Source of the DNA: Lachnospiraceae bacterium
GTDB taxonomy: Bacteria > Bacillota_I > Bacilli_A > RFN20 > CAG-826
Direction of reading: 5' to 3'
Assembly (NCBI GenBank): GCA_963657245.1
Contig: CAVKLJ010000003.1
Location: 1,219 to 65,218, forward strand
Length of the DNA stretch: 64,000 nt
Shown here: positions 6,950 through 35,239 of the stretch, in pieces
Numbering within the stretch: position 1 is the first letter of the stretch
Layout: each line of letters opens with the position of its first letter
The notes under the pieces: generated by a model
What the model was told of the DNA's origin: nothing
Database searches by the model: none
What the model saw: only the letters and a program-made list of their open reading frames with translations
Position numbers and translations under genes: made by a program

Positions 6950-9004
6950 AAATAAGACTCCTTTTGTGTGCTCGAGATATTCCTCTTCTTTTTCGGCACG
7001 ATAGATTCCATATTTGTTTTCATTAGCCGCAATATCATTTTCAAATGGTGCCACAAATGATGGGATTCTTGGCATGAAGTAAAGGAATATCCATAAGACA
7101 AAATACAAAGCAAGAAAAGCCAATAAGGCAAATAATGTAACCTGAGATCTAAGATATTTGAAAGCGAAATACGTTCCTTCAACGATAATTCCAAATACAA
7201 CATAATTTCCAAATAATGTGTATATCGAGAAGAATTTCTTTTCGTAGGCCCCACACATAGAAAGAATGAGCAATGCGATGAATAAAGGTGCAATCTCAGG
7301 AATCAAGCACATCACGCTATCGCTAAATGTAGGCATGATTAATATCAAGCCAACATGAACAAAATAAAGAATTAATGCCCATGCAGCGTGTCCTGTTTTC
7401 CCTTTCTTAAAAGCGCTAAGCACTCCACCAAGAATAAAAGGCGAAGCAGCAAAGAAAACAATTCCTCCATAGCGGAGCATTATATTTTGCATATATTCAA
7501 TTCCGGTGATGTATCCCATTCTTCTTGCAAGACAAACCAGGAAAAGGGCTGGCAGGAACGAGATAGCAAAGGCCTTGCTAAGAAATAAAGAAGGATCGTA
7601 ATGTGGCTTCTCAAGTTCAACAGGTCTTTCAAGCGGATTAACCTTTAATGCCGCTTCTTCTACTAACATAGGCAAGAAACAAACAGAGAAATAAGTAACG
7701 CCAGCAAAATCAAGATAATGTAAGCTGTCGTTTTCTGTCATTGTTCTTCCTAAGATGCAAAGATACGTAAATAAATAGAACCAAGAGTAATTGCTCTTTC
7801 TAAGGAATGCTCTAACAATAAGATAAATTCCAAACCCCCAAATAAGCGCTTCATAAGCAATGCCTACAAAGCCGTTTTGAGCAAGTACTAAACCCCATGA
7901 ATTATCAATGATCGAATAATATGAAGCGTTGCCGCATTTAATAAAGCTAAGCGCTCTATATTCATTACCATAGCCAAAGCCAAAGATTAGAGACCAAATG
8001 CCATTTTCTTTAATGGCATCAAAAGGGATTGTGACTGAAATGAATCTAATTTCAAAAGACCACTTAGACGCTTTATAGAAGTTGGCTTTAAAAAATTCCC
8101 AATATCTAGAAGCAAAAGCAAATACTCCAGTATCATGTCTAAACATGACGATAAAAATAAAACCTGCAAATATGAGCAAAGCAAAGAATATGAGATAAAT
8201 ACCCCTACCAACTTTGTTATATTTAAAAGCTCTAAATGTCGCAAAAATCCAAAAAGCCCCAAAGAAACACGCCCCAATTATCATGCAAGTCTTAGAGAAA
8301 AGGAAGAGTTGATTAAGCAAGAAGAAAAGCATTACTGGCCATCTCCACCAGTGAGGACGCTCAACCTCAAAATAGGCTTCACCTATTAAGGCCATAAAAA
8401 GAATAATTGCGTAAACATTACGATGAGGAGTAAAGGAAACAGGAACAGTATTTGTATTTCCATCAAATTTCATGCTTCCATCAAAAAGACTTCTATAAAG
8501 GTTTGCTTCAAAGATATATGAATAAGCAACTGCCACTAATCCAGATAATATGGCAACAAAGAACACCAAGCCTATCGTTCGCTTTCCACTGATCAGTTTT
8601 GGAACAATTGCAATAATCTCATAGAGAGATGTAAAGAGAAGGATTGCCAAAAGAATATATCTAACTCTCAAGGCAAAGGTGAATTGTCCTACAAGTTCTC
8701 CGTTGTACAAAACACCATTAAAAAGAGCGATTGGCACTATCGCCAAAATCATAAAGAGCAGACAGAAGCCAAACACTGGCCAATTGATTCTTACCTTGAA
8801 ACTACGCCAGGCAAAAAAGAACACCGCTCCTTCTAAGACAAACATGGCTATTGCCGAAATCAAAAATTCAAAATTTGTGAAATTAAAATCTGTTTTCCAA
8901 TTTGTAAATGCTTTTCCTTCAAAAAAGAAAGAAATTGCGCACAACAAAAAAGCCGACAATAAAAATCCTAATATATATCGTTTATTCGTCTTACTACTAT
9001 TCAT
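6929..9004 (-). CDS. polytopic membrane protein, O-antigen ligase/polymerase (Wzy_C)-like
   Basis: 691 aa with more than 12 hydrophobic segments. GFGYGNEY...IIDNSWGLVLAQNGFVGIAYEAL resembles the Wzy_C signature (G-x-G ... [H/D]N-x-[yw]-l-x-v-l-a-e-x-G-x-x-G). Confidence 0.55.
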   Translation of the reverse strand: MNSSKTNKRYILGFLLSAFLLCAISFFFEGKAFTNWKTDFNFTNFEFLISAIAMFVLEGAVFFFAWRSFKVRINWPVFGFCLLFMILAIVPIALFNGVLYNGELVGQFTFALRVRYILLAILLFTSLYEIIAIVPKLISGKRTIGLVFFVAILSGLVAVAYSYIFEANLYRSLFDGSMKFDGNTNTVPVSFTPHRNVYAIILFMALIGEAYFEVERPHWWRWPVMLFFLLNQLFLFSKTCMIIGACFFGAFWIFATFRAFKYNKVGRGIYLIFFALLIFAGFIFIVMFRHDTGVFAFASRYWEFFKANFYKASKWSFEIRFISVTIPFDAIKENGIWSLIFGFGYGNEYRALSFIKCGNASYYSIIDNSWGLVLAQNGFVGIAYEALIWGFGIYLIVRAFLRKSNYSWFYLFTYLCILGRTMTENDSLHYLDFAGVTYFSVCFLPMLVEEAALKVNPLERPVELEKPHYDPSLFLSKAFAISFLPALFLVCLARRMGYITGIEYMQNIMLRYGGIVFFAASPFILGGVLSAFKKGKTGHAAWALILYFVHVGLILIMPTFSDSVMCLIPEIAPLFIALLILSMCGAYEKKFFSIYTLFGNYVVFGIIVEGTYFAFKYLRSQVTLFALLAFLALYFVLWIFLYFMPRIPSFVAPFENDIAANENKYGIYRAEKEEEYLEHTKGVLFKKSVKR

Positions 9005-10314: not shown

Positions 10315-10920
10315 TTATCTAAGCGTATATTCTCTGTATTCATTAGATTTTTCGATGAATCCGTATTTTGAATTAATTTTGTATATGTAAGACAAATATC
10401 TTTGAGATCTTTTATAGTTTTTCTCATCGAATTTGTCTAATGAAAATATATTGATGTTATCTTGTAAATCTAACATTTTACATAGAGCGGATATAGGATT
10501 TCCTAAGCAAACATCGATATATGAAGCGTAATCCACGCTTTTATCATGTGTGATCCTTATTAATGGGTCTTTTATATACTCTCTAAAATAGTCTCCTTGA
10601 CCACATTCCTCAAAATTCTTTTCTACATCCTCGATAGTCCAACTACTATCTTCAATTACATCATGAAGAAGGCATACTTCAGATACTCCTTCAAAAGGAA
10701 TGCCCAATTCTTTAAGCCTAATCTTATCTATTGGCATTCCTATTCCTAATTGAATCAAATCAAGATACCTTTTATTGCATCTTAACGGATGGTTCATATA
10801 AGGCTCTCCATTTATCCTTCTTTGGCCTTTATGGGCATAAATCATAATCCTTAAACTTATACTTATAGGATTATTATCTTGCCTCATTATATTTCGCGTT
10901 TCATCAGATATCATCATCAT
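10315..10920 (-). CDS. HD-domain protein, RelA/SpoT-hydrolase-like (small alarmone hydrolase-like)
   Basis: AHKGQRRINGEPYMNHPLR and LLHDVIEDSSWTIEDVEKNF match the (p)ppGpp-hydrolase HD_4 motifs. SD AAGGAG lies upstream of ATG 10920. Confidence 0.7.
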   Translation of the reverse strand: MMMISDETRNIMRQDNNPISISLRIMIYAHKGQRRINGEPYMNHPLRCNKRYLDLIQLGIGMPIDKIRLKELGIPFEGVSEVCLLHDVIEDSSWTIEDVEKNFEECGQGDYFREYIKDPLIRITHDKSVDYASYIDVCLGNPISALCKMLDLQDNINIFSLDKFDEKNYKRSQRYLSYIYKINSKYGFIEKSNEYREYTLR

Positions 10921-11001
10921 TTTTCCATCTCCTTACAACACCATTATTCTATTAATGGAGGAACGAAAAATGGTCAAACGCGATTTGACATTTTAAGATT
11001 G

Positions 11002-11391
11002 TTAAAGCAAGGAAAAATCTTCGCAACCATTATTGATTAAAAGTTCATTTACCTCGTAAATGTCATATATTTGGTTCTCAATCGCATATCTTATGATTAA
11101 GGCAAACTTATTCGCGCTAGACAAAGTAAAACCAGCTTTCTTCAGAAGATATTTACATTCGTGATTGTTTAAATGCATCCCTAACGCAATTTTCACACAT
11201 GCATTTAATGATGGTGATGACTTTCCGGATATTATTGATGACCAAAGCTGTCTAGAAATGTTTACTTTGCTATATATTTCCGAAGGATTTGATATCCCGT
11301 GTTTATCCATAAGAAAATAGATATAATCGACAAATGATTGGGATTTTTCATCATTCTTTTGATGTTCTTGGATAAACTCTTCTAAGGTCAT
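11002..11391 (-). CDS. small HTH (XRE-like) DNA-binding protein
   Basis: Start set at ATG 11391 (MTLEEF...). The segment ISRQLWSSIISGK...ACVKIALGMHLNNHECKYLLKKAGFTLS aligns by eye with the C-terminal ~110 aa of the 1230-aa NTPase. Confidence 0.65.
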   Translation of the reverse strand: MTLEEFIQEHQKNDEKSQSFVDYIYFLMDKHGISNPSEIYSKVNISRQLWSSIISGKSSPSLNACVKIALGMHLNNHECKYLLKKAGFTLSSANKFALIIRYAIENQIYDIYEVNELLINNGCEDFSLL

Positions 11392-23889: not shown

Positions 23890-24911
23890 TCACAAATTTC
23901 ACTCACTTTGTCTCCGTCCGTTTCCCTAACGGTGAAAAATCCTACTACTTTGGAACAAACGATCCAGATTTAGAAGTAGGCACATATGTCATTGTCGATA
24001 CCGTTTCAGGTTTTGAAATGGGAATCGTCACGGCCGCTCCAATAAGCATGAAGCTTTATAATTCCAAATTAGAGCTTAAAGCCGTTATTCGTAAGGCCAA
24101 TAGTGAAGATTTAGAAGACTACGAAATGGCTAAGAAACAAGCTAGGGTTTCTCTTCAAATTGCTGATCGTGAAGCCAAGAAACTTAACCTTGGCATGACC
24201 TTTGTTGACGCTGGCTACACCCTTGATGGTTCAAAGATAACCATCACTTATACTGCCGATGGTCGCGTTGACTTCCGTGAATTATTAAGAGTATTGGCTG
24301 CTCAGCTTAAATGTAGAATCGAATTACATCAAATTGCCCCAAGAGATAAAGCCAAAGCCGTTGGTGGCTTAGGCATTTGTGGCCTTCCATTATGCTGTTC
24401 TACCTTCCTTAAATCGTTTGATGGCATCTCTATTTCGCGTGCTAAAAATCAGATGCTTACATTGAACATCCCTAAGCTTTCTGGCCAATGCGGAAGATTA
24501 AAATGCTGCCTTCTTTTTGAAGATGATATGTATACCGAAGCTAAGAAATCTTTTCCCCGCATCGGAGATAAAATTCATCTTCCTACAGGTGATTATACGG
24601 TAAGTTCATATAACATCATGTCTAGTTCAATCAAAGTCCAAAGTGAGGATGACGTGCAATTTCTTACCTTAGAGGAATATAACAAGATCTTGCATCCAAA
24701 CCTTGTAAAGCCTCAGCAAAAGAAAGATCAAAATAACAAGCAATCTTTCCAAAAGAAGGACAATCAACAACCTCAAAGAAAAGACAACCAACAGCAAAAG
24801 AGGGACAACCAACAAAATAACAAGCCTCAAAATAGAAACAACAATCAGCAAAGAAGAAATAATAACCGTCATCCAAATAACAAAAACAAAGGAAATCCTA
24901 ATAATGCTTAA
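23886..24911 (+). CDS. yaaT: PSP1-domain protein YaaT/RicT with Q/N/K-rich C-terminal tail
   Basis: PSP1 domain with Cys cluster (GICGLPLCCSTF...GQCGRLKCCL). Syntenic after holB (ATGA overlap). Confidence 0.85.
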   Translation: MITNFTHFVSVRFPNGEKSYYFGTNDPDLEVGTYVIVDTVSGFEMGIVTAAPISMKLYNSKLELKAVIRKANSEDLEDYEMAKKQARVSLQIADREAKKLNLGMTFVDAGYTLDGSKITITYTADGRVDFRELLRVLAAQLKCRIELHQIAPRDKAKAVGGLGICGLPLCCSTFLKSFDGISISRAKNQMLTLNIPKLSGQCGRLKCCLLFEDDMYTEAKKSFPRIGDKIHLPTGDYTVSSYNIMSSSIKVQSEDDVQFLTLEEYNKILHPNLVKPQQKKDQNNKQSFQKKDNQQPQRKDNQQQKRDNQQNNKPQNRNNNQQRRNNNRHPNNKNKGNPNNA

Positions 24912-25764
24912 ACGTGAGCTTAACTTTCAAGGAGACACTCCTTTACTTTATCTAATTGCCACGCCGATTGGCAATCTTGAAGAATTCACTCCTCGAGCAA
25001 TAAATATTCTCAAAGAAACGGATTATGTCGCCTGTGAAGATACACGTAACTCAGGTCTTTTGCTCAAGAGATTTGGTTTTGATTTGCCTCTAATTTCTTG
25101 TCACGAACATAACGAAGAAAAAGCTACAGAGAAAATTCTTTCCCTAATGAAAGAAGGAAAAAGGATCGCCTACATGTCTGATGCAGGCTATCCAATAATT
25201 TCTGATCCAGGAGAAAGGCTTGCAAGGAGAGTTCTCGAAGAAGGATACAAAGTCTCCGTAATAAATGGTCCTAATGCAGGATTATGCGCTTTGGTAGGTT
25301 CAGGAATTCCTAGCAAGCATTTCTACTTCTTTGGCTTCTTAGAAAGCAAACCATCGACAAGAAAGAAACAATTAGAATCCTTAAAAGATTTCCGCGATAC
25401 AATCATCTTCTATGAATCTCCACATAGAATTGAAGACACATTAAAAGATATGGCAGCAATCCTTGGAGAGGATAGACAAGCCTCTCTAGCAAGAGAGTTA
25501 ACAAAAACTCACGAAGAATATATACGTGGAACGTTAGGTGAATTAAAAGGCGTTGCTCCAGAAACAATCATTGGCGAAATTGTCATCGTTGTTGAAGGTG
25601 CAAAAACCATCGAAAAAGAACTTAGTGATGAAGAAATAGTCGGGCTTTTGCAGGGAAAATTGGAAAATTTGAAAAGCAAAGATGCAATAAAAGAAATTGC
25701 AAACGAGTATTCTATCCCTAAGAACAGAGTTTACGATATTTATTTAAAGAATTGGAAAAATTAA
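24904..25764 (+). CDS. rsmI: 16S rRNA (cytidine1402-2'-O)-methyltransferase
   Basis: TP-methylase fold motifs (LYLIATPIGNLEE, CEDTR, YESPHR). Syntenic after yaaT. Confidence 0.9.
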   Translation: MLKRELNFQGDTPLLYLIATPIGNLEEFTPRAINILKETDYVACEDTRNSGLLLKRFGFDLPLISCHEHNEEKATEKILSLMKEGKRIAYMSDAGYPIISDPGERLARRVLEEGYKVSVINGPNAGLCALVGSGIPSKHFYFFGFLESKPSTRKKQLESLKDFRDTIIFYESPHRIEDTLKDMAAILGEDRQASLARELTKTHEEYIRGTLGELKGVAPETIIGEIVIVVEGAKTIEKELSDEEIVGLLQGKLENLKSKDAIKEIANEYSIPKNRVYDIYLKNWKN

Positions 25765-25774
25765 TCGAATGAAT

Positions 25775-25805
25775 AATGGTCGTCATATTGGTGACCATTT
25801 TTCTT
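25775..25805 (+). terminator. intrinsic terminator closing the dnaX-rsmI block
   Basis: AATGGTC(25775-25781) ... GACCATT(25793-25799) followed by TTTTTC. Confidence 0.65.
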
Positions 25806-25910
25806 TACGGTTTTTCCTAATACATTCCCTGATATTTTTGTCTCTTAAACGAAAAATGATGTCACATGCTCTATAATTAAGAAAAGCAAAAGATTGGCGG
25901 TGAATGGCAT

Positions 25911-28900
25911 ATGTCTATTAAATTAGATGATCTTGAAACATTTAAAAAACATAGAAATAAAATATCCGAGTCCTTGACAAGCGAATTTGTTGGTAGGCAA
26001 AAAGAAATAAATGACATTTGCAACCTGTTATCACAAAAAGATTTCGTCGCCATAACTGGTTCTGCAGGAATAGGTAAAAGCAGGTTAGCGGTGGCTGCAA
26101 TAGAAAAATATGTTTCCGAAAACAAAAACATTACGGTATTATGTGTCAAAAGCTTTGGCGATTATATATCAGCAATCGAAGACTCCATAGAAGATTCTAA
26201 AAAATATCTTTTCTTTATCGATGACGCAAATGACTACAAAAAACTTGGAGAGTTGATTGAGTGTTTGAACTATTGTAAACAAGACAATGTGAAAGCCGTT
26301 TTTACTGTTAGAGATTACCTAAAAGATTGCATTGATGATGAATCGATCGTTTTTTATGAAGTTCGTCCTCTTAATAACAAAGAAATCAAAGAAGTTATAA
26401 AAGAAAACACTCCTATTAAAAGTGATAAATGGTTGAATAAGATCGCAGATATTTCAAAAGGTAATGTAAGGCTTGCTTCTATAATTGCTGACGTTGCATT
26501 AAAAGATGAAAAGGACTTTGCTAGTCTCTTTAATGTCCAAAACATAATGAATTCTTTCTATAAAGAACAAATCGCTAAAATGAATGGTTCTAGCAATTTG
26601 TTAATTACGGCTGGAATAATTTCTTTCTTTAGAACCACCTATCTAAATCAGTTATTTTATATCTCGCCAATCTTAAAACTTGCTGGCATCACCAAACAAG
26701 AATTTTTACATTATGTTGATACCTTGATATCGATGGAATTAGTTGATGAATGCGTTGGCGTTGTCAAAATATCAGATCAATGCTTTGCCGACTATTTGCT
26801 CAATTACGTTTTCATCGAGAAAAAATACATAAAAATCAAAGATTTGATCGTGAGCACGTACAAATACTACGAAAAAAGAATAGTCGAATCATTGAATGCA
26901 ATTTTAAGCACATGTTTAACCGATGACTCAGTGTCTTATCTTAAAAATGAACTTCTCAATTCTTATTCTTCGATAGAAGATATTGAGTTAAAAAACAAGA
27001 TTGAAGTTGCTTTCGCACCGCTTACACTTGACCACGCTGCTATGGAATTTAAAAACGGGGTCGAAAGCTATTCTGACAAAAAAGATATCGGATGGCTTCT
27101 TGAATTATTTAAAACTCTCGCAAAAACGGAATATCAATCGGTAGCAAATGAAGGAATCATGCGTCTTTTAAAAAAGACGGGCACAAATAAAATACACGTG
27201 TTCAAAGCGATTGATGATGCATATTCGCTTGATTATGATAGCGTTAGATCATCTTTCGTGTATCTCGATTCTTTTGTTTGTTATTTAATCGATCACCGTA
27301 TCAATGATGAGCCTTTATTGTTATTAGTTTCATCTTATCTTAAATATTCGTTTAGAGATTCCAGGTTTATCGGCAATAAAAGACTCGAATTTTGCGCGTT
27401 TAATGTAAGAGACGATATGAGCAAAATCATACCTTTCAGAAGAAAATGTTGGGATTACATCTTTGAATATGGAAAGGATAAGTCGCTTGATGCAATCATT
27501 GATTTTGCCAAGTATCATATCGCGGAAGATAATCAAAAAATAATGCAATCTGATCTCGAAGCAATAAACAAACATTTAGAAAATCTAGAAAATAAAGATC
27601 TGATCTATGCAGTCTTATGTGAAGAGTTCAAAGATGATGCCAAAAATTATAACTTTGAGAATATGCTTTATTCGAGCGCAAAACATAGCGACATTCTCAA
27701 AATTATTTTGGAAAAACCTACGAACGGCCAAAATTATGAAACATTTGAAAAGTCACACGAAGAAAACGTGAAAAGTTTTTATGTGGCAAACAAGTCAAAC
27801 ATCTTTGAAAAAATAAGAAATATCGATCTAATCTCCAATTATTATGCACAAGATATCAAAAATTTCCTTTCGATACTTATTCATTATCTAGATGAATTCT
27901 CTTCATCCATCTTAAGTGTCTTCGTAAGATACAAGGTTCATCCACTTTCTGTTGTAGAAAAAGCCTCATCTATTGTTGAATTGGAAACTTTATATAATGA
28001 AATAAAATCAATAGATGACTCAACTATGAGAGAAGAATATTTGTATGCTTTTTATTCATACATTAACAGCCAAAATAATGAAAATCTTTTTGGGTTTGAA
28101 ACTTGGATAAAATCAAAGCAAGATTTGGATACGAAGCCTATTTTTGGAAGAAATTTGCTTTCTTTAAGACAAATATCAGAAAATTCAGGTATTTCGTACG
28201 TTAAGTTAGTGAAAATCATCTTGAAAAAGAGACAATATAACGACGTTATTGCAAAGGAATATCTATCATGCATGTTTTTCAAAGAAAACGCATTCAAAGA
28301 ACTACTTAATTTAGATAGAGATTTAGCAATAGCCATATATGAATTTCTAATAGACCACGCAGAAAATGATTATAAGAATAAAGCGCTTAAAGAAATTATC
28401 AGCCTCAAGAGAAACTATATCAAAACCTTTGCCATAAGATATCTAGATGCCGAAACGATCGATGAAAACGGCTTAGATGAAATCATTTTCGATGACGATA
28501 ACTATAAGTTATTCTTTGACACATGTATAAATGCAGGCAAGGAAAAACTTCCTTACTTCTTCCCCTTAAACTTGCAACGGTTTGTCTCACATCATTTAGG
28601 AAACCAAAAAATGCTCGATTGGATTGAAGGCTATATAGATAAAAATCGAAATGATAACAAAGCCATGGAATCACTGTTTTCTGTCCTGGCTAGAATTGAT
28701 GATAAATACAAGAATGGCTTTATTATTAAATATTATGAGAGAGGCAAGGACGAAGAAGTTTTAAAATGCGCTTTATCCAACGTATGTGTATCTTATTCGC
28801 TGAATTCTGCTGAATCTTATTTGACAATTAAGATAAAAAACCTAGCGTCCTTAAAAGCGAGTTTAATCAAATGGGACAATCTAAATCTGGTTTCTTTCAT

Positions 28901-29603
28901 TAATGAGCTAATAGAGGGGTACAAAGAAGATATAAAAAACAGCAAAGTTAGTAAACTAATCGAATACGTTGATCCGAGTTTGCTAAACGAGCTTCAAGAA
29001 ATTGATGTGAAGACAGAAATCTCGCTCGTTGATGCCTTTAGACTATATTCTGAAGATGAGAATTTCCGCAGGCTTCTCTCTTCCGGATATGTCGCATATA
29101 AAGATGGATGCTTCGTGACGAAATCGAACGTTCCTTTGAAGTTTGTCGATGTTTTAAAAGATAAAAAGATATTAGGGATAAAAACAATTCAAGCAAACGG
29201 AAGCGAGAAGGAGAAATATGAGAAATATTTATCTTCTTTAAGAATAATCGAAAAGATATTTAATGACAAAAAAATAGCAACTTTAGATGAGTGCCTTGCT
29301 AAACTTTTTGATGAACGAGGGTGGAGTGTAGAGGACTTTGAAAGAAAAACTTTTTTAAGCAGAGACATTTTTAGCAAAATCAAGAATAACAAAAGAAATA
29401 ATCTACAAAAAATCACAATTATAAAGATATTAATAGGGCTGAAACTGTCAAAAACCGAAAGAGACTTCTTGTTAGAACTTAATAACACTCAGCTCTCGGA
29501 ATTTGATAAGAATGATGTTCAATATAGTTTTATTCTTGATTCCAAAATCGATATAGGGATGGCTGACGAATTGCTAAAAAAATTAGGAAAAGATGGTTTT
29601 TAG
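25911..29603 (+). CDS. STAND-like P-loop NTPase with long helical middle region and C-terminal HTH module (1230 aa)
   Basis: FVGRQKE lead-in, Walker A GSAGIGKS (26058-26081), Walker B LFFIDDA (26208-26228), GxP-like SKGNVRLAS (~26457-26480). About 900 aa of K/E/N/I/L-rich sequence follow. The last ~110 aa (29268-29600) are an XRE-like HTH module paralogous to ORF 11002..11391. Confidence 0.75.
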   Translation: MSIKLDDLETFKKHRNKISESLTSEFVGRQKEINDICNLLSQKDFVAITGSAGIGKSRLAVAAIEKYVSENKNITVLCVKSFGDYISAIEDSIEDSKKYLFFIDDANDYKKLGELIECLNYCKQDNVKAVFTVRDYLKDCIDDESIVFYEVRPLNNKEIKEVIKENTPIKSDKWLNKIADISKGNVRLASIIADVALKDEKDFASLFNVQNIMNSFYKEQIAKMNGSSNLLITAGIISFFRTTYLNQLFYISPILKLAGITKQEFLHYVDTLISMELVDECVGVVKISDQCFADYLLNYVFIEKKYIKIKDLIVSTYKYYEKRIVESLNAILSTCLTDDSVSYLKNELLNSYSSIEDIELKNKIEVAFAPLTLDHAAMEFKNGVESYSDKKDIGWLLELFKTLAKTEYQSVANEGIMRLLKKTGTNKIHVFKAIDDAYSLDYDSVRSSFVYLDSFVCYLIDHRINDEPLLLLVSSYLKYSFRDSRFIGNKRLEFCAFNVRDDMSKIIPFRRKCWDYIFEYGKDKSLDAIIDFAKYHIAEDNQKIMQSDLEAINKHLENLENKDLIYAVLCEEFKDDAKNYNFENMLYSSAKHSDILKIILEKPTNGQNYETFEKSHEENVKSFYVANKSNIFEKIRNIDLISNYYAQDIKNFLSILIHYLDEFSSSILSVFVRYKVHPLSVVEKASSIVELETLYNEIKSIDDSTMREEYLYAFYSYINSQNNENLFGFETWIKSKQDLDTKPIFGRNLLSLRQISENSGISYVKLVKIILKKRQYNDVIAKEYLSCMFFKENAFKELLNLDRDLAIAIYEFLIDHAENDYKNKALKEIISLKRNYIKTFAIRYLDAETIDENGLDEIIFDDDNYKLFFDTCINAGKEKLPYFFPLNLQRFVSHHLGNQKMLDWIEGYIDKNRNDNKAMESLFSVLARIDDKYKNGFIIKYYERGKDEEVLKCALSNVCVSYSLNSAESYLTIKIKNLASLKASLIKWDNLNLVSFINELIEGYKEDIKNSKVSKLIEYVDPSLLNELQEIDVKTEISLVDAFRLYSEDENFRRLLSSGYVAYKDGCFVTKSNVPLKFVDVLKDKKILGIKTIQANGSEKEKYEKYLSSLRIIEKIFNDKKIATLDECLAKLFDERGWSVEDFERKTFLSRDIFSKIKNNKRNNLQKITIIKILIGLKLSKTERDFLLELNNTQLSEFDKNDVQYSFILDSKIDIGMADELLKKLGKDGF

Positions 29604-29795
29604 AAGAAAAATAAAAAAATATATTTCTAAAAAATACAAAATGACCATATAGGAGGACGAATTTATGAAAAACTGTTCAAAAAGCCCATAAACTCTGTAT
29701 TTTGATAAAATACGGGCATTTTTAAATCCTCTTTAGAATTTGGATAAGAACGCACTTAGATACGTTCAAATCTAAATATTACAGGAGGAAATAAA

Positions 29796-30452
29796 ATGTC
29801 TAAGACAATAATTGATGACGGTTATTCGTCATACCTAGTTGAAGGTGCTACCTTTGTAGGCAAGTACCAGATACCATCCATCCCCAAACATGATGTGATT
29901 CTCATCCCAAAGGACATGATTCCGTTCGACAAGAGGAATGTCGTGAAAGAAAGAGATCTAGCGATAGATTTCTACATGCACGATGTGACCTTCAGACAAG
30001 TTCTCACATCGACAAGTAAATACCTTGACGAACTATCAAGGTTTGCAGCCGTGATCTCACCAGACTGTTCCTTATATAGGGACATGCCGCTATGCTTACA
30101 GATAACCAACACCTATATGAATAGAGCTGTCGGCTTCTATCTTCAAAAGAATGGCTTGTATGTAATTCCGAACGTCAGATGGGGAGATGAAAGAAGCTTT
30201 GAATTCTGCTTCCAAGGACTTCCTACAAACGACATCGTATGTGTCAGCACGCATGGCTGCATCAAAGGCAAGGAAAACAAGTATTATTTCAGGCTAGGCT
30301 TAGAAGTAATGCTTAACATCTTGAAACCTCAGGTCGTGCTAGTGCATGGCTCAATGCCGGATGAAGTGTTCTCTAATTTCCTGAGCGAAACGAAGTTCGT
30401 CCATTACGAGAGCTATATCTCCAAGATGAGAGGAGGTAAGCACAATGGGTAG
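29796..30452 (+). CDS. DUF4417-like protein (218 aa)
   Basis: Strong SD AGGAGG at 29783-29788. VISPDCSLYRDMPLCLQITNTYMNRAVGFYLQKNGLYVIPNVRWGDERSF...VCVSTHGC resembles the DUF4417 consensus as I recall it. Visibly higher G+C than its neighbours. Confidence 0.65.
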   Translation: MSKTIIDDGYSSYLVEGATFVGKYQIPSIPKHDVILIPKDMIPFDKRNVVKERDLAIDFYMHDVTFRQVLTSTSKYLDELSRFAAVISPDCSLYRDMPLCLQITNTYMNRAVGFYLQKNGLYVIPNVRWGDERSFEFCFQGLPTNDIVCVSTHGCIKGKENKYYFRLGLEVMLNILKPQVVLVHGSMPDEVFSNFLSETKFVHYESYISKMRGGKHNG

Positions 30453-30930
30453 CGGAATATCTGGAAGTTATAGCGGAACAAAACCGACCGAAGCCTCTCA
30501 ACAATACGCAAAAAGTTATGGCGTGACTCCCGAAATGCTTAAATTTGACATCGACAGAGGAGTTTACAATGGATCGTACGAGAAGAATCCAACCGCGAAA
30601 AATATATATGATGTTATAAACGGCGAATATATAATTTCCGCAAAACGCGACAGATATTTAACGTATGTTATTGATATGAATGACAACATAATCGTTGCTG
30701 AGAGAAATGGTAATGGTTTTGGAGGCAAAGCCACACCACATCCGACTTTAATTGGTGGAAAAAATCCAAGGGTTAAGTTCGCAGGAATATTGCATCTAGA
30801 GGGAGGAAAAATCACTTCATATGATCATATGAGCGGCCATTATAAGCCAAACATTAAATCTATGAGTGTAGCTAAAAAAGCATTCGATAAATTGCCAAAC
30901 TATGTGTTTAAGGGAGGAAAGAAAAAATGA
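30445..30930 (+). CDS. small basic protein with His-motif C-terminal half, toxin-module-like (161 aa)
   Basis: GGAGG 8 nt upstream. The start overlaps the previous stop by 8 nt. Cys-free and K-rich, with motifs TPHPTLIGG, HLEGG and DHMSGHYKP. No family assigned. Confidence 0.55.
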   Translation: MGSGISGSYSGTKPTEASQQYAKSYGVTPEMLKFDIDRGVYNGSYEKNPTAKNIYDVINGEYIISAKRDRYLTYVIDMNDNIIVAERNGNGFGGKATPHPTLIGGKNPRVKFAGILHLEGGKITSYDHMSGHYKPNIKSMSVAKKAFDKLPNYVFKGGKKK

Positions 30931-31379
30931 TAAAAATTGAAAATAAAATTTTAAAAAAAATGTTTAATTCTGATTATTGGAAAATGAGTAATGACGAGTT
31001 GGCGAAACTTGAGGAACAAGCTAATTCCATTTTGCAGAAAAACTCATGGAGTGATGTTTACGAAAACCTTGACTTCTTTTTGAGAAATGAATGTAAGACA
31101 GAGGACGATGTGATTAACTTTGTTCATTTTTTCGTGCATTATTACGGATTAAAATTTCAAATCCCTAGTCAATACGATCCATATGACCTAATAGGATATA
31201 TCCTATCGATGGTCAATTTGGAAAAAAGATGGGACGATTGTGGAGGCTTGTTTGATGACTTTGCTAATCAAGCCTTAAGAATTGATTTATATAATGACCC
31301 TTATTATCAATTTTGGAGAGATCCAAAAATTCTAGCCATTGCAGAAAAGTATAAGGAGAAAAAGAATGGACTACATTAG
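30927..31379 (+). CDS. small acidic Trp-rich protein, immunity/antitoxin-like (150 aa)
   Basis: ATGA stop/start overlap with the preceding basic ORF. GGGAGG SD. D/E- and W/Y/F-rich sequence that looks helical. No family assigned. Confidence 0.5.
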   Translation: MIKIENKILKKMFNSDYWKMSNDELAKLEEQANSILQKNSWSDVYENLDFFLRNECKTEDDVINFVHFFVHYYGLKFQIPSQYDPYDLIGYILSMVNLEKRWDDCGGLFDDFANQALRIDLYNDPYYQFWRDPKILAIAEKYKEKKNGLH

Positions 31380-31917
31380 ATTATCAAAGGAAATCTCATA
31401 TGCATTAAGACATGCACCATGGGAATACGAGCTTGAGCTCGATGAGAATGGTTTCGTTTCCATCAAGCAATTGCTCCATTCTCTGAACTCATCAAACGAG
31501 TATGACAGAGAAATAACAAAAGAAGATTTAGAATACATTATCTCTTGCTCAGATAAGAAGAGGCACGAAATAGTCGGAGATAAAATTAGAGCGCTTTACG
31601 GCCATTCTATTCCAACAAAAATCGAGAAAACTACTGCAATTCCACCGGATATTCTATATCACGGTACAGCAAAGAGATTCCTTGATTCCATAATGAAAGA
31701 TGGATTACTTCCAATGAAGAGACAATACGTTCATCTAAGCGTAGATACGGATATGGCAACACTTGTCGGAAAAAGGAGAGATCATAATCCAATAATTCTT
31801 GTGATTGATGCTAAAACTGCATCAAAGGACGGAATAAAATTCTATATTGGAAACGACAAAGTCTGGCTTTGCGATAAGATGCCTGCAAAATATATCAAGA
31901 TCCTAGAGAACGACTAA
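31366..31917 (+). CDS. kptA: RNA 2'-phosphotransferase KptA/Tpt1 family
   Basis: Start set at ATG 31366 behind AAGGAG (MDYIRLSKEISYALRH...). Collinear with E. coli KptA: LRH, SDKKR, GHS, LYHGT..RFL, RxYVHLS. All four catalytic R-H-R-R positions are present. Confidence 0.88.
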   Translation: MDYIRLSKEISYALRHAPWEYELELDENGFVSIKQLLHSLNSSNEYDREITKEDLEYIISCSDKKRHEIVGDKIRALYGHSIPTKIEKTTAIPPDILYHGTAKRFLDSIMKDGLLPMKRQYVHLSVDTDMATLVGKRRDHNPIILVIDAKTASKDGIKFYIGNDKVWLCDKMPAKYIKILEND

Positions 31918-31939
31918 TTTAAAATCCTGAGCAAAAAAA

Positions 31940-34900
31940 TTAATCCAGTTCTTTTTTCTTTTTGTGAATATGATAAACGAATCTACCAATCGTATATGTG
32001 GCAATCGAAACGGTTGCAACACTTGCAAGAATACATCCTTCTTTTAAATAAGGAGTCTCATATTTCATAACGTAGGTTTGTTCACCTTCTGGAGCTAAGA
32101 AGCCAACAAATCCACCATCGAGTTTATAAGTCTTACAAGCCTTGGTAACACCATCTTTTGAAGTTGCAGTAACTTTCCATCCTGCATCATATCCTAAAGC
32201 AGTTACAACAAGCTTCTTTGAAGAGAAGTTAGATGAAAATGTTGCTTTATTTGTAGAGTAGGTCGCATTGGTTAATGCGTATTCCTCGCTTTGATATTTA
32301 TGATAGAAAGCTTCGATATCGCTACGATTTGCAACATACACTCCATATGTTCCAGGAATAGTCGCAACCGCATCATTAATTCCAGGATTGCTAAAATCAC
32401 TTGGTTTAGCGTTTAAACAGATATATTTAACTTTGCCTTTTGGATAGAAACCAAATACATCCGCGGAGGTTGATCCACCAACTCTCTTTGAAGAATATGT
32501 GCTTAACGTATTGTAATCATAAGATAAGAGTTGATCTTGATGAATTACGCCATTCTCATCGGTATAGTCTCCAATCAAATAAACACGAGTTTTATAAGAA
32601 GAAGATGAAGCAACGTTAAACATCAAAGAAATATAAGCGCCGCTCCAATCTGAATTGAAATAGGTATCTCCATTTGCTGGAGTAAAGACAACCGTTTCAT
32701 AATCAGGAACATAATCATTTCCATTTGTACGGATAGAATCGTAATGTTTCAAGAAATATGTAACGCCATATGTTTTCTTATCTGATTCAGAATAACCAAT
32801 GAAGTTTGTGTTGGTGTGTCTATAGATCTTTTTCTTCAAGGATATTTGTTTTAAAAGAGTAGACGCATCAGGGGCTGAAGAAACCACAAATCCTTCATCT
32901 TTTAAAGAATCAATATCTTCATCTTTAACTATCGCTCCAGAGGTATAAACCTCCTCGTTACGATTGATTTCATTGAAAACTCCACTGGCGGATAAATTCA
33001 CTTTATAGAAATCATCTTTATAGGAATTGCTTCCGTCTTTGTTTTCTTTGTAAATGTAATCAACGGCATGTCCAAAACTATTTTCGTTAACAAGTGAAGA
33101 AGAATAGAAACGTAAAGCACTCTTTTCATCTCCATAAACTAACTTGGAATCCCATGGGACGTTGTCGCTATTGAGATATTTATCGTTTTCTTCGTTAACG
33201 ATGCAGCTTTCCCAATCGCCATATCCTTCATTCTTGATGCCGTAATATTTGATATTGAAGGCAACGTCTGCCCCCACGCGTTTATTGCCATAATATGCCG
33301 ACCAAGATTTGTTGTAATAGGTCTGTCCATAAGCGGTCCCTTCATATTCGTGTCTATTCATATGCGAATATAAGGCGAGTTGGTTTACATCGTAATTAAA
33401 CAATGAGTGGAAATTGCTTGTTCCATTGAAATCAAACACTTCCTGAGCGTTATTCTCTGGCATACCTTCAATGAAAGCGCGGTAATAAGTATTTCCGTCA
33501 AAAGAGTTAATTTCTTTAAACGCGTTTGTCACGCAGTTTCTATAGGAAATTCCACCATTCCAATTGTTGTAATTCCAAGTGCCCATATAGGCAAAGGACG
33601 CATTGCCCCAAATAATGGTTTCAACCATGACTATGCCGCCAAGGATCTTAAGCAACAATTCTTTCTTTTTCACGAAAAGAATGATCAATCCAACAACGAA
33701 GTCCATTCCAAGTTGGAAATAAACAATCCATAGAGTCGAATATCCACTTACGACCGAAGGAACACTATATCTAGTAACCCAATATGTCGTTAATGATGTC
33801 TCAAATGTTTTATCTTTAAGAACGACAATACAAAGAATCCAAGTAAGAGTTGCTAAGAATAAAGAAAGGGCAGCCCCACTAATTGGAACCCATTTAGGTT
33901 CATCTTTTAATCTATCTAACTCCTGGCAAGCGTAATAGATGATGATTGGAACAAGAACGATATACCATCTTCCATATCCATCACCTGTAAAGGCATAGAA
34001 GAAATAATAAGCGAAATCAGTAAAGACCAAATAGGCGACCAATATAAAAGCAATTATGTGTGAAACTTTCTTTCTTCTGATTGAAGAAACAAAGGCAATC
34101 CAGAACATAACAACCATTGGGGTATAGCAGAAAAGGGACGCAACCCAAGCATCATATTGAATGCCACCACTAGAAGTCATACCACTTGCAACAGGTAAGG
34201 CTAAATAACCATATGTAGGATAGAAAAATCCAATTAACCCCTGTAATTCCCTGCCAGGATGTTGCCCAACTAATTCAAATAGACGAGCAAATAGAGTTTT
34301 TCCATCCAATGTTTTTATGGCAGTAAGTAAAGAGTTTAAGTAAGCCGCACCAATCGAAGTTGTTCTTCCTGTAAGAGATGATTCCCTTAACGAAGGGAAA
34401 AGACTCCAGGAGCATAACATGATTCCACATGCGAAAGACATAACCCCTAAAAGAATTACAAAAATATTATCTTTCCAATTGCGTTTCTTGATTGTCCAAA
34501 GGTATCTCCAAATGGCATATATAACACCGAAGATGCAAATAACCACAAGGAAGAAGAAAGACATAAGTCCAAGCAAAGCTAAGGAAATCGATAAGGTGAT
34601 TATTTTCTTTTCTTTGATAACTTTCTCGATGCCTAAAAGAACAAGCGGAACCATTGAACAAACGGAAACAACCGAAGGGAAACCAACCATAAAGTTCAAA
34701 TATCCATTGAAAGCAAAAGCAAGGCCACCAACTCTAGCTGATCCTTCGCTAACACCAAGATACTTAAGATAGGCTCTTGTTGCTAACGCTCCGACAACTC
34801 CTTTAAAGAAGGTTGCAATGACAAAAGTCTGAGGAATTATTGAGCGTGGAAAAATATAACAAATAATCAAGAATGGATCGAATAAGCCATAGTAGGAATT

Positions 34901-35239
34901 CGAACCAATATTATCCGTTCCTAAATATGTGTCCGTGCCATAAAGTTCAAAAACGCCTGTTCTAAAGAATTTATGCCAAGCATCCCAAAACGAATATGTA
35001 AATGTGACGTATTGTCCTGTATAGTCAGTCCAAGGATAGAACTGGGTGAAATGGTTTGTCACTAAGGAATAGGCACACCAAAGCATGCCTAAAACAAAGA
35101 CCATCACTCCATAATAGAAGAGAGATTTGTTATCGAAAAGAAAAGGAAGATGCTTATGCATCCAGGAAGAAAAGCTTCCTTTTTCTTTTCTTAATTCCGA
35201 GAGGGAAACGTTTTTACTTTCGCTTACTTCTGCTTCCAT
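31940..35239 (-). CDS. YfhO-family polytopic membrane protein (GT-C-like) with large C-terminal extracytoplasmic domain (1099 aa)
   Basis: N-terminal half has more than 12 TM segments, with YfhO-like motifs (GTDNIGSNSYYGLFDPF). The C-terminal ~500 aa are soluble, and there is one final TM segment. Confidence 0.72.
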   Translation of the reverse strand: MEAEVSESKNVSLSELRKEKGSFSSWMHKHLPFLFDNKSLFYYGVMVFVLGMLWCAYSLVTNHFTQFYPWTDYTGQYVTFTYSFWDAWHKFFRTGVFELYGTDTYLGTDNIGSNSYYGLFDPFLIICYIFPRSIIPQTFVIATFFKGVVGALATRAYLKYLGVSEGSARVGGLAFAFNGYLNFMVGFPSVVSVCSMVPLVLLGIEKVIKEKKIITLSISLALLGLMSFFFLVVICIFGVIYAIWRYLWTIKKRNWKDNIFVILLGVMSFACGIMLCSWSLFPSLRESSLTGRTTSIGAAYLNSLLTAIKTLDGKTLFARLFELVGQHPGRELQGLIGFFYPTYGYLALPVASGMTSSGGIQYDAWVASLFCYTPMVVMFWIAFVSSIRRKKVSHIIAFILVAYLVFTDFAYYFFYAFTGDGYGRWYIVLVPIIIYYACQELDRLKDEPKWVPISGAALSLFLATLTWILCIVVLKDKTFETSLTTYWVTRYSVPSVVSGYSTLWIVYFQLGMDFVVGLIILFVKKKELLLKILGGIVMVETIIWGNASFAYMGTWNYNNWNGGISYRNCVTNAFKEINSFDGNTYYRAFIEGMPENNAQEVFDFNGTSNFHSLFNYDVNQLALYSHMNRHEYEGTAYGQTYYNKSWSAYYGNKRVGADVAFNIKYYGIKNEGYGDWESCIVNEENDKYLNSDNVPWDSKLVYGDEKSALRFYSSSLVNENSFGHAVDYIYKENKDGSNSYKDDFYKVNLSASGVFNEINRNEEVYTSGAIVKDEDIDSLKDEGFVVSSAPDASTLLKQISLKKKIYRHTNTNFIGYSESDKKTYGVTYFLKHYDSIRTNGNDYVPDYETVVFTPANGDTYFNSDWSGAYISLMFNVASSSSYKTRVYLIGDYTDENGVIHQDQLLSYDYNTLSTYSSKRVGGSTSADVFGFYPKGKVKYICLNAKPSDFSNPGINDAVATIPGTYGVYVANRSDIEAFYHKYQSEEYALTNATYSTNKATFSSNFSSKKLVVTALGYDAGWKVTATSKDGVTKACKTYKLDGGFVGFLAPEGEQTYVMKYETPYLKEGCILASVATVSIATYTIGRFVYHIHKKKKELD

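Follow-up and report, generated by a model that had tools for sequence, protein, structure and literature searches.

Polymorphic toxin-immunity systems (Rhs/YD, CDI CdiA-CT/CdiI, T6SS VgrG-linked, and T7SS) carry a small immunity gene after the toxin gene. MuF-fused and other phage-borne polymorphic toxins have exchangeable toxin domains and immunity genes beside virion or packaging genes. In Tre1-Tri1, DarT-DarG, and CapRel/FaRel with SAH hydrolase, a protective enzyme chemically reverses the action of the toxin, either alongside binding of the toxin or in place of it. RNA conflicts (PrrC versus T4 Pnkp/Rnl, and the KptA-2H-ligase conflicts of Burroughs and Aravind) set a metal-independent lesion against end-healing enzymes, including KptA (reviewed in PMC9503650). 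We describe a five-gene locus encoding a STAND NTPase-HTH protein, DUF4417, p3, p4, and KptA, located in a 64-kb stretch of DNA (the window, meaning the whole 64,000 nucleotides analyzed).

The p3 domain is found among the C-terminal toxin domains of the polymorphic systems, and here, too, a small predicted immunity gene follows; the DUF4417 module is likewise polymorphic, with a constant partner and leader and a varying toxin domain and immunity gene. The toxin in the window differs in standing alone behind a Gly-rich leader of just 20 residues, and the window is without Rhs, VENN, LXG, or secretion genes; the constant element is instead a separate DUF4417 protein, and expression would be under the STAND-HTH regulator. 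Among phage-borne polymorphic toxins, mycobacteriophage Centaur gp2-gp4 is a comparable example, although the constant part here is DUF4417 plus the short Gly-rich leader rather than a fusion to a MuF head protein. The role proposed for KptA resembles that in the enzymatic-immunity pairs, but KptA is no ADP-ribosylhydrolase (it removes RNA phosphates with NAD+) and is an optional third gene, next to a separate immunity protein predicted to be of the binding type. In contrast to the RNA damage/repair conflicts, toxin, immunity gene, and predicted repair enzyme are encoded together and stand on one side of the conflict, and ligase, 2H, and kinase genes do not accompany KptA in the window.

An open reading frame check of the window placed all five genes on the + strand at the coordinates given by the initial annotation, downstream of a block of recR, tmk, holB, yaaT, and rsmI that ends at 25764.

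25775..25809, + strand: intrinsic terminator, closing the rsmI housekeeping block, at the left edge of the putative island
25911-29603, + strand: STAND NTPase-HTH gene (1230 aa)
29796-30452, + strand: DUF4417 gene (218 aa)
30445-30930, + strand: p3 gene (161 aa)
30927-31379, + strand: p4 gene (150 aa)
31366-31917, + strand: KptA gene (ATG start at 31366)
31940-35239, - strand: yfhO, convergent to the KptA side

Other details of that annotation held as well, namely, the terminator 3' of rsmI (an 11-bp stem at 25775-25799, then a T-run), the 192-nt spacer between the STAND and DUF4417 genes, the gene overlaps of 8 nt, 4 nt (ATGA), and 14 nt, and the SD sites of DUF4417 (AGGAGGA), p3 (GAGGAGG), p4 (GGGAGGA), and KptA (AAGGAGA). 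The composition shifts that it described were real (GC of 0.29 to 0.35 for STAND and 0.41 to 0.44 for DUF4417, with flanks at 0.36 to 0.40). A TTG at 31339 is the earliest possible start of KptA; the gene call on an identical contig (L001) uses the ATG at 31366, which equals residue 1 of the solved Tpt1.

The five genes, initially proposed as a candidate undescribed conflict system, do form a genuine conflict module that moves horizontally, though its makeup is modular and not that of a fixed five-gene operon. The core unit is DUF4417-p3-p4, in that order; of 84 dereplicated loci, 73 have DUF4417 adjacent to p3 on its upstream side, and 69 have p4 adjacent to p3. KptA is an accessory gene whose link is to the toxin, and the STAND-HTH protein is one of several interchangeable regulators, with XRE alone, XRE plus ImmA/IrrE, or ABC-3C neighbors in other cassettes. 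Relatives of p3 were present in at least 127 species-representative genomes, all from gut or rumen, spanning Bacillota, Bacteroidota, Spirochaetota, Fibrobacterota, Planctomycetota, Lentisphaerota, Actinomycetota, and Chloroflexota. Cassette flanks vary from species to species, and in other species rsmI and yfhO are not at its sides. Its genes are not core genes of this position, and they recur together repeatedly in other loci. Neighborhoods include ABC-3C components, AAA_15/21 ATPases, restriction-modification genes, a Schlafen-like gene, and XRE plus ImmA/IrrE. Profile searches assigned a housekeeping role to none of the proteins. The view that no named system matches the locus was upheld with PADLOC, and our search found no published description of such a system.

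We read the locus, with a probability of roughly 55%, as a mobile toxin-immunity cassette that belongs to a polymorphic family and is gated at the level of transcription; in it, KptA would repair the RNA lesion made by p3. The biological role that we favor for it would be abortive-infection-type defense or competition between mobile elements.

The toxin gene has two parts.

30445..30504, + strand: Gly-rich N-terminal leader of p3 (MGSGISGSYSGT...), disordered in the model
30505..30930, + strand: p3 toxin domain, an unmodelled polymorphic-toxin C-terminal family

The p3 protein is basic (pI 9.6), and its family had no sequence match in Pfam, NCBIfam, or PDB; its AlphaFold2 model (pLDDT 89.6) had no fold neighbor in PDB. 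A profile search retrieved 1022 representative proteins, and the domain forms the C-terminal end of 59 of the 77 matches of at least 250 aa. The fusion partners of the domain were Rhs repeats with DUF6531 and a VgrG-like hub, and it was also found in a T7SS-type locus and, on Cronobacter plasmid pCCO1, in a CDI VENN orphan module. Since it ends Rhs, VgrG-like, and CDI (VENN) proteins, p3 is, judged from these profile matches, a C-terminal toxin domain of the polymorphic-toxin family, which backs the earlier toxin/immunity guess for the basic/acidic pair. In the cassette, p3 would thus be the effector, the same domain serving as the C-terminal warhead in Rhs, VgrG, and CDI systems. R87, H99 (in PHPTLIGG), and S130-G131-H132 are candidates for a catalytic role. 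Through two histidines and one arginine, p3 may damage RNA by metal-independent chemistry, and the lesion would be a 2'-phosphate, or a terminal 2'/3'-phosphate or cyclic phosphate. Because p3 has neither a PDB fold match nor profile similarity to EndoU, the case for RNA as its target comes from two things, the KptA linkage and the conserved His/His/Arg residues.

The p4 protein is acidic, as first described (pI 5.1), has no Pfam or PDB match, and is the predicted cognate immunity protein of p3. Its gene is translationally coupled to p3 via the ATGA overlap and, for 68 of 81 p3 genes counted at the species level, lies directly downstream. DUF6960 replaces p4 in other p3 loci and is also next to secreted toxins, following the p3-domain toxin in all four toxin loci that were looked up and in 18 of 26 metagenomic ones. 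Probably, p4 neutralizes p3 by binding, and DUF6960 would be the alternative immunity protein of the other loci.

The identity of DUF4417 was confirmed (Pfam, E 1.4e-53), and its AlphaFold2 model (pLDDT 90) has an alpha/beta, partly TIM-barrel-like fold. After its own homologues, its best annotated fold neighbors are phage proteins like TGT or DpdA, a TGT-like transglycosylase, but this similarity is weak (E 1.5e-3 to 1.7e-2; TM about 0.5; only 11 to 12% identity), and DUF4417, at about 180 residues, is not a full barrel. Phage fusions of DUF4417 to ParB-type NTPase domains echo the pairing of DpdA with DpdB, a ParB-like ATPase (PMC10164549), although 7-deazaguanine synthesis genes are not nearby here. 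A leader of the form MGxG...G-x-[FY]-x-G-T heads both p3 in the window and unrelated toxins downstream of DUF4417, and is absent from Rhs-fused p3 domains. The next gene after DUF4417 starts with MG[GSTLA]G in 80 of 98 cases, and most others have leader variants. Among the cargo domains are EndoU_bacteria (E 3e-15) and Gln_amidase (E 8e-14); where DUF4417 lies in a phage or mobile element, the variable toxins after it comprise EndoU RNase, papain-fold Gln-deamidase, p3, and others. By these sequence matches, DUF4417 is a general, phage-type partner of leader-bearing toxins, and it probably recognizes or processes the leader, by which the toxin would be activated, held, or routed.

In phages, DUF4417 is abundant (492 matching records); it is the first or second gene from the left end in mycobacteriophage genomes, lies three genes upstream of a minor tail protein gene in Centaur (where a leader-bearing toxin gene and a small ORF come after it), and is just upstream of the terminase gene in Streptococcus phage IPP39. 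This abundance, and the position of phage module copies next to packaging genes, would suit an offensive weapon against other cells, with p4 and KptA shielding only the producer or its kin, and DUF4417 as an adaptor or loader that takes the leader to phage particles, phage-like particles, or an export route. The use of the p3 domain by secreted Rhs, VgrG, and CDI toxins and the accompanying immunity gene are also in its favor. Nevertheless, secretion or virion genes are not near in the window or in most chromosomal loci, the p3 N terminus is not signal-peptide-like by inspection, no known trafficking domain was found, and p3 had no match among 50,697 phage records; dedicated regulators (STAND-HTH, XRE plus ImmA) are more typical of inducible intracellular effectors. 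We consider such a weapon unlikely, though the likeliest of the alternatives to the gated intracellular cassette.

That gating is proposed from the following features.

29295..29453, + strand: Cro/C1-type HTH at the STAND C terminus (HTH_19 and HTH_26 matches)
29620..29637, + strand: site 1, an operator-like imperfect palindrome (TATATTTC-N-AAAATAC)
29697..29713, + strand: site 2, an operator palindrome (GTATTTT-GAT-AAAATAC) abutting the cassette promoter -35
29734..29739, + strand: -10-like hexamer TAGAAT of the cassette promoter

The 1230-aa protein was correctly recognized as a STAND-like NTPase ending in an HTH. It matched nSTAND3 (Pfam, E 2.7e-9, 37.3 bits versus a cut-off of 27.2), with the P-loop domain at about nt 26001-26324, then a long helical middle region and the C-terminal HTH, which is the best-conserved part of the protein (a weak match in the window protein; best E of 5.9e-7 among 10 homologues). 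In its P-loop STAND NTPase, long helical sensor region, and C-terminal DNA-binding domain, it is like MalT-type STAND regulators, and the operator beside the -35 is a further likeness in the comparison with these and Avs; its HTH, however, is Cro/C1 and not LuxR. Unlike Avs, it has no effector domain, and the PADLOC Avs models do not match it.

Full-length STAND homologues are found beside cassettes in the window and in 10 further distinct loci (those of nine species-representative genomes, and L003). The palindrome GTATTT-N4-5-AAATAC occurs in 17 of 198 fetched loci, exactly those with a full-length STAND homologue, and in every case 75 to 95 nt upstream of the DUF4417 or p3 start. Half-sites of site 2 are invariant across nine species, and the site occurs once in the 64-kb window (chance expectation, 0). 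At site 1, the right half-site AATACA is invariant (9/9 spacers), and the left arm is conserved in the six spacers reaching that far upstream. A TAnAAT-like hexamer was present in eight of nine aligned spacers, the other (L086) having TAAATT. We predict that site 2 is the binding site of the STAND HTH. The protein would bind these palindromes beside the cassette promoter -35, its NTPase/sensor part would detect a signal (such as infection or stress), and cassette transcription would probably be switched on.

So large an apparatus (a 1230-aa STAND protein with a dedicated operator, or ABC-3C and ImmA/IrrE neighbors) is more than would be needed by a plain addiction (toxin-antitoxin-like) module that stabilizes its island or mobile element, KptA limiting collateral damage, with no part in phage defense or antagonism. 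The tight, translationally coupled p3-p4 pair, the patchy distribution and horizontal spread, and the mismatch with known defense models would all be expected of such a module, yet the immunity gene is 3' of the toxin gene in the style of polymorphic toxins, and no plasmid or integrative element, tRNA, or flanking repeats were found around the cassette in the window. We judge plain addiction improbable.

KptA was rightly named as a KptA/Tpt1 enzyme (Pfam PTS_2-RNA, E 3.9e-42). It aligned with Clostridium thermocellum Tpt1 (6E3A; E 1.5e-65) over the R-H...R...R tetrad; the active site is intact, and the enzyme looks active. C. thermocellum Tpt1 strips internal 2'-PO4 and terminal 2'- and 3'-PO4 (PMC6573784). 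In all nine species loci whose immunity is of the DUF6960 type, KptA comes directly downstream; where immunity is of the p4 type, 27 of 68 species loci have KptA within 10 kb. An Rhs/T7SS locus (L098) carries it too, as do 6 of 30 metagenomic long-toxin loci and a VgrG locus (L101), in which it overlaps the immunity gene. Among DUF4417 loci with other cargo, it was found in none of 14; KptA follows the p3 toxin, not DUF4417. About 60% of p4-type cassettes lack it, as do about 80% of long-toxin loci, and it is therefore dispensable. Since it is not fused to the toxin, it remains in the producer cell, which fits protection and not attack. In the favored reading, KptA would provide enzymatic co-immunity, removing the lesion with NAD+ and leaving the RNA reusable. 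That KptA tracks p3 across bacteria may hint at the purpose of bacterial KptA.

KptA might instead be a co-effector, making p3-generated 5'-phosphate nucleic acid ends irreparable with ADP-ribose caps or consuming NAD+/NADP. Tpt1 enzymes do ADP-ribosylate 5'-phosphorylated RNA and DNA in vitro (PMC8120803, PMC11833690) and are reported to act on NADP(H) too (PMC10622864); against this, a separate gene after the immunity gene, as in the Rhs/VgrG loci, would not enter the target with the toxin, and the nearest characterized homologue is an efficient remover of 2'-/3'-phosphate, making a co-effector very unlikely. Chance-adjacent housekeeping genes, for example an enzyme that repairs RNA and a TGT-like one that modifies tRNA, with p3/p4 being no toxin/immunity pair, are hardly credible, for although DUF4417 has a weak TGT-like fold and KptA is a genuine RNA enzyme, co-occurrence and domain-fusion data contradict them (gene order kept across phyla amid different flanks; p3 domain terminating Rhs, VgrG, and CDI toxins), and GC is unlike that of the flanks.

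One further element lies in the 5' leader of the cassette.

29748..29767, + strand: inverted repeat GAACG-N10-CGTTC, just before the SD

It had no Rfam match and may act as an RNA hairpin or as a second site for protein binding. The repeat is conserved across spacers, and one spacer (L019) has a two-sided change (AAACA...TGTTT).

The five same-strand open reading frames (ORFs) between rsmI and yfhO were found where the initial annotation had placed them, and the overlaps of 8, 4 and 14 nt, the 192-nt spacer and the strong Shine-Dalgarno (SD) sites that it described at the four cassette genes were all correct. The terminator it placed after rsmI is present as a hairpin, and the right neighbour of the block is the convergent yfhO. 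Spacer elements were compared over nine STAND-to-DUF4417 spacers (L numbers denote fetched comparison loci or contigs).

25764: end of rsmI
25775-25799: terminator hairpin
25911-29603, + strand: ORF of STAND, an nSTAND3 NTPase with a C-terminal helix-turn-helix (HTH)
29620-29637 and 29697-29713: palindromes common to the nine spacers
29734-29739: -10-like TAnAAT, from the nine-spacer comparison
29748-29767: inverted repeat GAACG-N10-CGTTC, common to the spacers, with a two-sided change in L019; an SD site comes after it
29796-30452, + strand: ORF of DUF4417
30445-30930, + strand: ORF of p3, the 161-aa basic protein and proposed toxin
30927-31379, + strand: ORF of p4, the acidic protein and proposed immunity
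31366-31917, + strand: ORF of KptA, an RNA 2'-phosphotransferase; ATG 31366 is the start in the gene call of L001 (a contig identical to the window's) and is aligned with residue 1 of solved Tpt1

Pfam agreed with the earlier domain calls for nSTAND3 (PF20720, 37.3 bits versus a cut-off of 27.2, residues 31-138), DUF4417 (PF14386, 181.5 bits versus 28.9, profile positions 3-179 of 183, E 1e-53) and Tpt1/KptA (full-length PF01885 match, 144.7 bits versus 26, E 4e-42); the same scan of window proteins placed p3 and p4 in no family. The view that the block belongs to no named defence system held up against PADLOC-DB v2, where the best E value among all five proteins was 7e-4. The composition shifts are also real (GC, 0.29 to 0.35 in STAND and 0.41 to 0.44 in DUF4417, versus 0.36 to 0.40 in the flanks). 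Searches of the block borders returned no tRNA genes and no convincing flanking direct repeats; because of its mobility and composition, we infer that the block is an insertion. In the adjoining housekeeping genes, the yaaT/PSP1-like protein ends in a Q-, N- and K-rich low-complexity tail of ~80 residues (QQKKDQNNKQ...NNKNKGNPNNA; window 24660-24911).

An exhaustive p3 profile search returned 1022 representative proteins or clusters. In 59 of 77 proteins of at least 250 aa, the p3 domain lies within 25 residues of the C-terminus (for example, residues 1554-1689 of 1696, 2000-2139 of 2147 and 7389-7528 of 7535), and its fusion partners include Rhs repeats with DUF6531 (two proteins) and a VgrG-like hub (one protein). 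Plasmid pCCO1 of Cronobacter condimenti carries, downstream of a CdiA-like gene, an orphan array in which a VENN pre-toxin module precedes the domain and a DUF6960-like gene comes next. The loci of long p3 proteins are typical polymorphic-toxin loci: L098 encodes an EssC-like FtsK/SpoIIIE ATPase, small proteins, then Rhs-p3, DUF6960 and KptA; L101 encodes VgrG-like-p3, DUF6960 and KptA, adjoined by a Tox-HDC toxin gene; and in L099 and L100 the toxin is followed by DUF6960. Judged from these architectures, p3 is a predicted polymorphic-toxin C-terminal domain, of which the window holds a standalone copy. The domain is non-terminal in the other 18 of the 77 long proteins (P0290, P0310, P0317 and others), which share a conserved extension of ~200 aa after it with a hydrophobic, membrane-like segment; no fused KptA or p4 was found in these extensions, which match no cassette protein.

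Residues kept across the superfamily are Y45, N48, Y74, G85, R87, PHP(T)L98-102, GG104-105, P108, V110, AG113-114, G121, N128, SGH130-132 and P135. The AlphaFold2 model of p3 is confident (pLDDT, 89.6) and had no neighbour in the PDB by Foldseek (best E, 0.04; TM, 0.12). Neither sequence nor profile searches of the PDB gave any match to p3, p4 or DUF4417; Rhs-type p3 was likewise without a PDB sequence match, and 20 Rhs-type domains matched nothing in Pfam or NCBIfam. The p3 domain would be a widespread toxin domain, used by T5SS, T6SS and T7SS toxins, with neither a Pfam model nor a solved structure. The reading of standalone p3 as an orphan cassette left by a larger toxin gene was dropped because p3 comes with an SD of its own and a conserved leader and is partnered by DUF4417 in >100 species. 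A 2H phosphoesterase, brought to mind by the HPTL motif, was rejected on finding one HxT only, the second His in SGHYKP and no fold match. Kinship with EndoU was dropped, hhalign having aligned only the shared leader (probability, 4.7%).

The toxin/immunity-like pair of the initial annotation also fits the gene order, by which 78 of 81 species-level p3 genes have p4 or DUF6960 as the next gene downstream (68 p4 and 10 DUF6960). The p4 protein (~150 aa; pI, 5.1) was assigned no family when 43 members were scanned against Pfam and NCBIfam, and the alternative protein (~120 aa) is the DUF6960 found after secreted toxins (hmmsearch E, 2e-24). DUF6960 comes after the toxin in all four long-toxin loci looked up; among metagenomic long toxins it comes next in 18 of 26, and p4 in one. 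From its position, its translational coupling and its interchangeability with DUF6960, p4 is predicted to bind and neutralise p3, and the two would be the immunity families that accompany the toxin. Compared with secreted polymorphic toxin systems, which have a linked delivery apparatus or trafficking domain, the window locus has neither: no Rhs, VENN, LXG, T6SS or T7SS genes were found in the window, where the neighbours are housekeeping genes. The arrangement also differs from type II toxin-antitoxin systems, in which the antitoxin is encoded upstream, binds DNA and autoregulates, whereas here the immunity gene comes after the toxin gene, p4 is without a detectable DNA-binding domain and regulation appears to come from the separate STAND-HTH.

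The initial annotation had asked whether the gene order recurs in other genomes, and DUF4417-p3-p4 was found again across species with differing flanks. None of the genes flanking the window block stood beside cassettes elsewhere in the flank comparison across species. Of 84 dereplicated loci, 73 have DUF4417 as the gene immediately before p3, and 69 have p4 as the gene immediately after it. The p3 homologues form 111 clusters, none with a Pfam domain, and a scan of species-representative genomes detected relatives in 127 of them, every one of gut or rumen origin (Bacillota, Bacteroidota, Treponema, Fibrobacter, Planctomycetaceae, Lentisphaeraceae, Bifidobacterium, Senegalimassilia and Anaerolineaceae). 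The STAND-DUF4417-p3-p4(-KptA) block occurs also in several other species (L017, L018, L020, L021, L081, L086 and L091), with different neighbours, and some cassettes lie among restriction-modification, Schlafen-like or other conflict genes. No p3 match was found in phage records, and IMG/VR yielded nothing beyond two weak giant-virus matches. These are ~250-aa proteins on giant-virus metagenome contigs (L096, 10001-10237; L097, 5733-5795) with weak p3-like segments, one of 32% identity over residues 65-150 and the other a 21-residue match. In a Lachnospiraceae metagenome-assembled genome (L076; 2-1161, 2976-3968 and 6028-6876), p3-p4 lies ~2 kb upstream of the holB homologue and ~5 kb upstream of the rsmI homologue; the window has this housekeeping block too, with its cassette at a different site. 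Two cassettes flank STAND in L015/L019 (1574-3144 and 7352-8966) and in L003 (7352-8920 and 12850-13818), each with a divergent p3/p4 pair and its own upstream palindrome; the second cassette of L003 is without DUF4417.

The HTH at the C-terminus of STAND scores weakly in the window protein and up to E 5.9e-7 among homologues; no other segment of the family is as well conserved. STAND matched none of the PADLOC Avs models (best PADLOC match, mad8; E, 7e-4; 17 bits), and whereas Avs proteins join STAND to an effector domain such as a nuclease or protease, the HTH was the one additional domain found in the window STAND. The sequence GTATTT-N4-5-AAATAC occurs once in the window (0 expected by chance) and in 17 of 198 fetched loci, always 75 to 95 nt before the DUF4417 or p3 start; these 17 loci and no others encode a full-length STAND homologue. 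It keeps this position in L003, where STAND is downstream, and it precedes each of the two cassettes in L015 and in L019. We take it to be the putative operator of the STAND HTH; the palindrome lies beside the -35, which suggests that STAND may act through it as an activator. With this predicted operator, STAND would be a sensor that steers an effector cassette by transcription and not by effector fusion. The leader region matched no Rfam family. Elsewhere STAND is replaced by XRE-HTH proteins (23 loci), a second HTH family (14 loci), ImmA/IrrE-type peptidases (9, 8 and 5 loci) or a neighbouring ABC-3C system (AAA_15 ATPase, MC7 and CTD11; 10 to 11 loci). Short STAND-related ORFs (156 to 430 aa) beside cassettes in L023, L063, L082 and L092, without the exact palindrome, may be degraded or truncated regulators. 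Between the two palindromes of the window spacer (29651-29691) lies an 8-codon mini-ORF, MKNCSKSP, with its own AGGAGGA SD; the nearest relatives (L017 and L091) have MKNHSKSP or MKNRSNSP in its place, more distant ones do not keep it, and it may encode a leader peptide or have arisen by chance.

Standalone p3 opens with a nearly invariant Gly-rich leader of 20 residues (MGSGxSGxYSGT), which is disordered in the model and missing from the Rhs-fused forms. A small variable protein with a similar Gly-rich start follows DUF4417 in every place examined (IMG/VR contigs L102-L115, phage record MT835627, the second cassette of L013, L069 and gp2-gp3-gp4 of Mycobacterium phage Centaur). An ORF starting MG[GSTLA]G comes after 80 of 98 DUF4417 genes, and most of the others have variants such as MKGSSPLF...GGGSGG. 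Cargo after DUF4417 includes a bacterial EndoU (E, 3e-15) and a papain-fold Gln-deamidase (E, 8e-14; gene annotated "VIP2-like toxin"). Since the cargo domains differ and some are recognised toxins, the DUF4417 module is polymorphic in itself, and its steady place ahead of leader-bearing toxins suggests a polymorphic toxin module that has gone unrecognised in phages and genomic islands; 492 phage records match DUF4417. On viral contigs L114/L115 (5627-6103), a protein starting MDLLRGDYLSAGLDLLGVIPVAGEFADTARLA is encoded just after a DUF4417-toxin-immunity cassette and presumably resembles a pre-toxin TG-type N-terminal domain. Downstream of a ParB-DUF4417 fusion gene in Streptococcus phage IPP39, gp25 (L116, 3063-3809) has its Gly-rich stretch (GGGRGANFEKGKDGKYPGFRGAGGARDSGSS) not at the N-terminus but internally, after an N-terminal extension of ~65 residues.

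The DUF4417 model is confident (pLDDT, 90.4), and once its own viral homologues are set aside, its nearest folds are phage queuine tRNA-ribosyltransferases (TGT/DpdA-like) in BFVD (E, 1.5e-3 to 1.7e-2; TMq, 0.37 to 0.52). In the PDB, TGT 7b2i has the highest TM (TMq, 0.48) at a weak E of 0.067, and PdxJ has a lower E value. Conserved residues are D63, D90, C91, R128, W129 and C155. Phages fuse DUF4417 to ParB-type domains, which recalls the pairing of DpdA with the ParB-like ATPase DpdB with which it works (PMC10164549). The likeness to TGT/DpdA is offered as a lead from structure models, not a classification. DUF4417, as a TGT-like enzyme or an adaptor, would act on the shared leader, activating or routing exchangeable toxins; if true, this would make a new phage-borne and island-borne polymorphic toxin system. 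The toxin partnership would be the first functional context for DUF4417, for which the one substantive mention found in 7.7 million PMC papers and bioRxiv describes an uncharacterised domain that phages fuse to ParB folds.

KptA aligns with Clostridium thermocellum Tpt1 (6E3A) over residues 1-178 (E, 1.5e-65) and falls below the strict NCBIfam equivalog cut-offs (188 versus 231). Its R15-H16 (ALRHAP), R74 (KIRALYGHS) and R119 (KRQYVHLS) align with identical residues in 6EDE/6E3A; Arg-His...Arg...Arg is the catalytic tetrad of Tpt1 (PMC8120803). The C. thermocellum enzyme takes off internal 2'-PO4 and terminal 2'- and 3'-PO4 using NAD+ (PMC6573784), and the role of Tpt1 in organisms without fungal-type tRNA splicing "remains obscure" (PMC6573784, PMC8120803).

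KptA tracks the p3 toxin. It is directly downstream in all nine species loci with DUF6960-type immunity and enough flank; of the 68 p4-type species loci, 11 have it as the adjacent downstream gene and another 16 have it elsewhere within 10 kb. By a rough, uncomputed estimate, chance would place a single-copy gene within 10 kb in well under 1% of cases. KptA is also found in 2 of 4 looked-up long-toxin loci and 6 of 30 metagenomic ones, and in 0 of 14 DUF4417 loci with other cargo. In the Rhs and VgrG loci it is a separate gene after the immunity gene (overlapping it in L101) and would therefore remain in the producer cell, which favours a protective, repair-type role for KptA over that of a co-toxin.

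From this linkage, the activity of Tpt1 and the place of KptA in the producer cell, p3 is proposed to damage RNA, leaving a phosphate lesion that KptA could clear. The lesion would be 2'-phosphorylated or 2'/3'-phosphate-terminated RNA, and the two His, one Arg and one Ser of p3, with no more than one conserved acidic residue, would, we infer, fit metal-independent phosphoryl chemistry. KptA would have been recruited repeatedly as NAD+-dependent co-immunity, in Rhs/T7SS, VgrG/T6SS and DUF4417 contexts. The joint reading, that the p3 family is the natural source of substrates for bacterial KptA/Tpt1 and that DUF4417 is a TGT-like enzyme or adaptor acting on the leader of exchangeable toxins, is tentative, and we give it a probability of about 0.3. 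Repair of p3 damage by KptA, if true, would supply a physiological role for bacterial Tpt1; a toxin domain accompanied time and again by both KptA and an immunity gene offers a concrete, testable source of Tpt1 substrates, and there is a realistic chance that the cassette explains the bacterial role of KptA.

The kinds of component are already known (polymorphic toxin and immunity, STAND regulator and Tpt1). In PMC and bioRxiv, we found no description of the p3 toxin family with its two immunity families, of the recurrent KptA linkage, of the DUF4417/Gly-leader polymorphic module or of the STAND operator, and no paper linking DUF4417, the p3 toxin domain or DUF6960 to KptA. The whole account is computational, and the toxicity, target and chemistry of p3, its neutralisation by p4, repair by KptA and the action of DUF4417 are predictions; defence, addiction and antagonism are the candidate purposes.

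In L098, the KptA gene after the Rhs toxin and immunity gene (10500-11100) is broken by stop codons or frameshifts in the assembly. Its product and the window KptA have almost the same N-terminus (SKEISYALRHAPWEYELE), and the gene is either a pseudogene or an assembly error.
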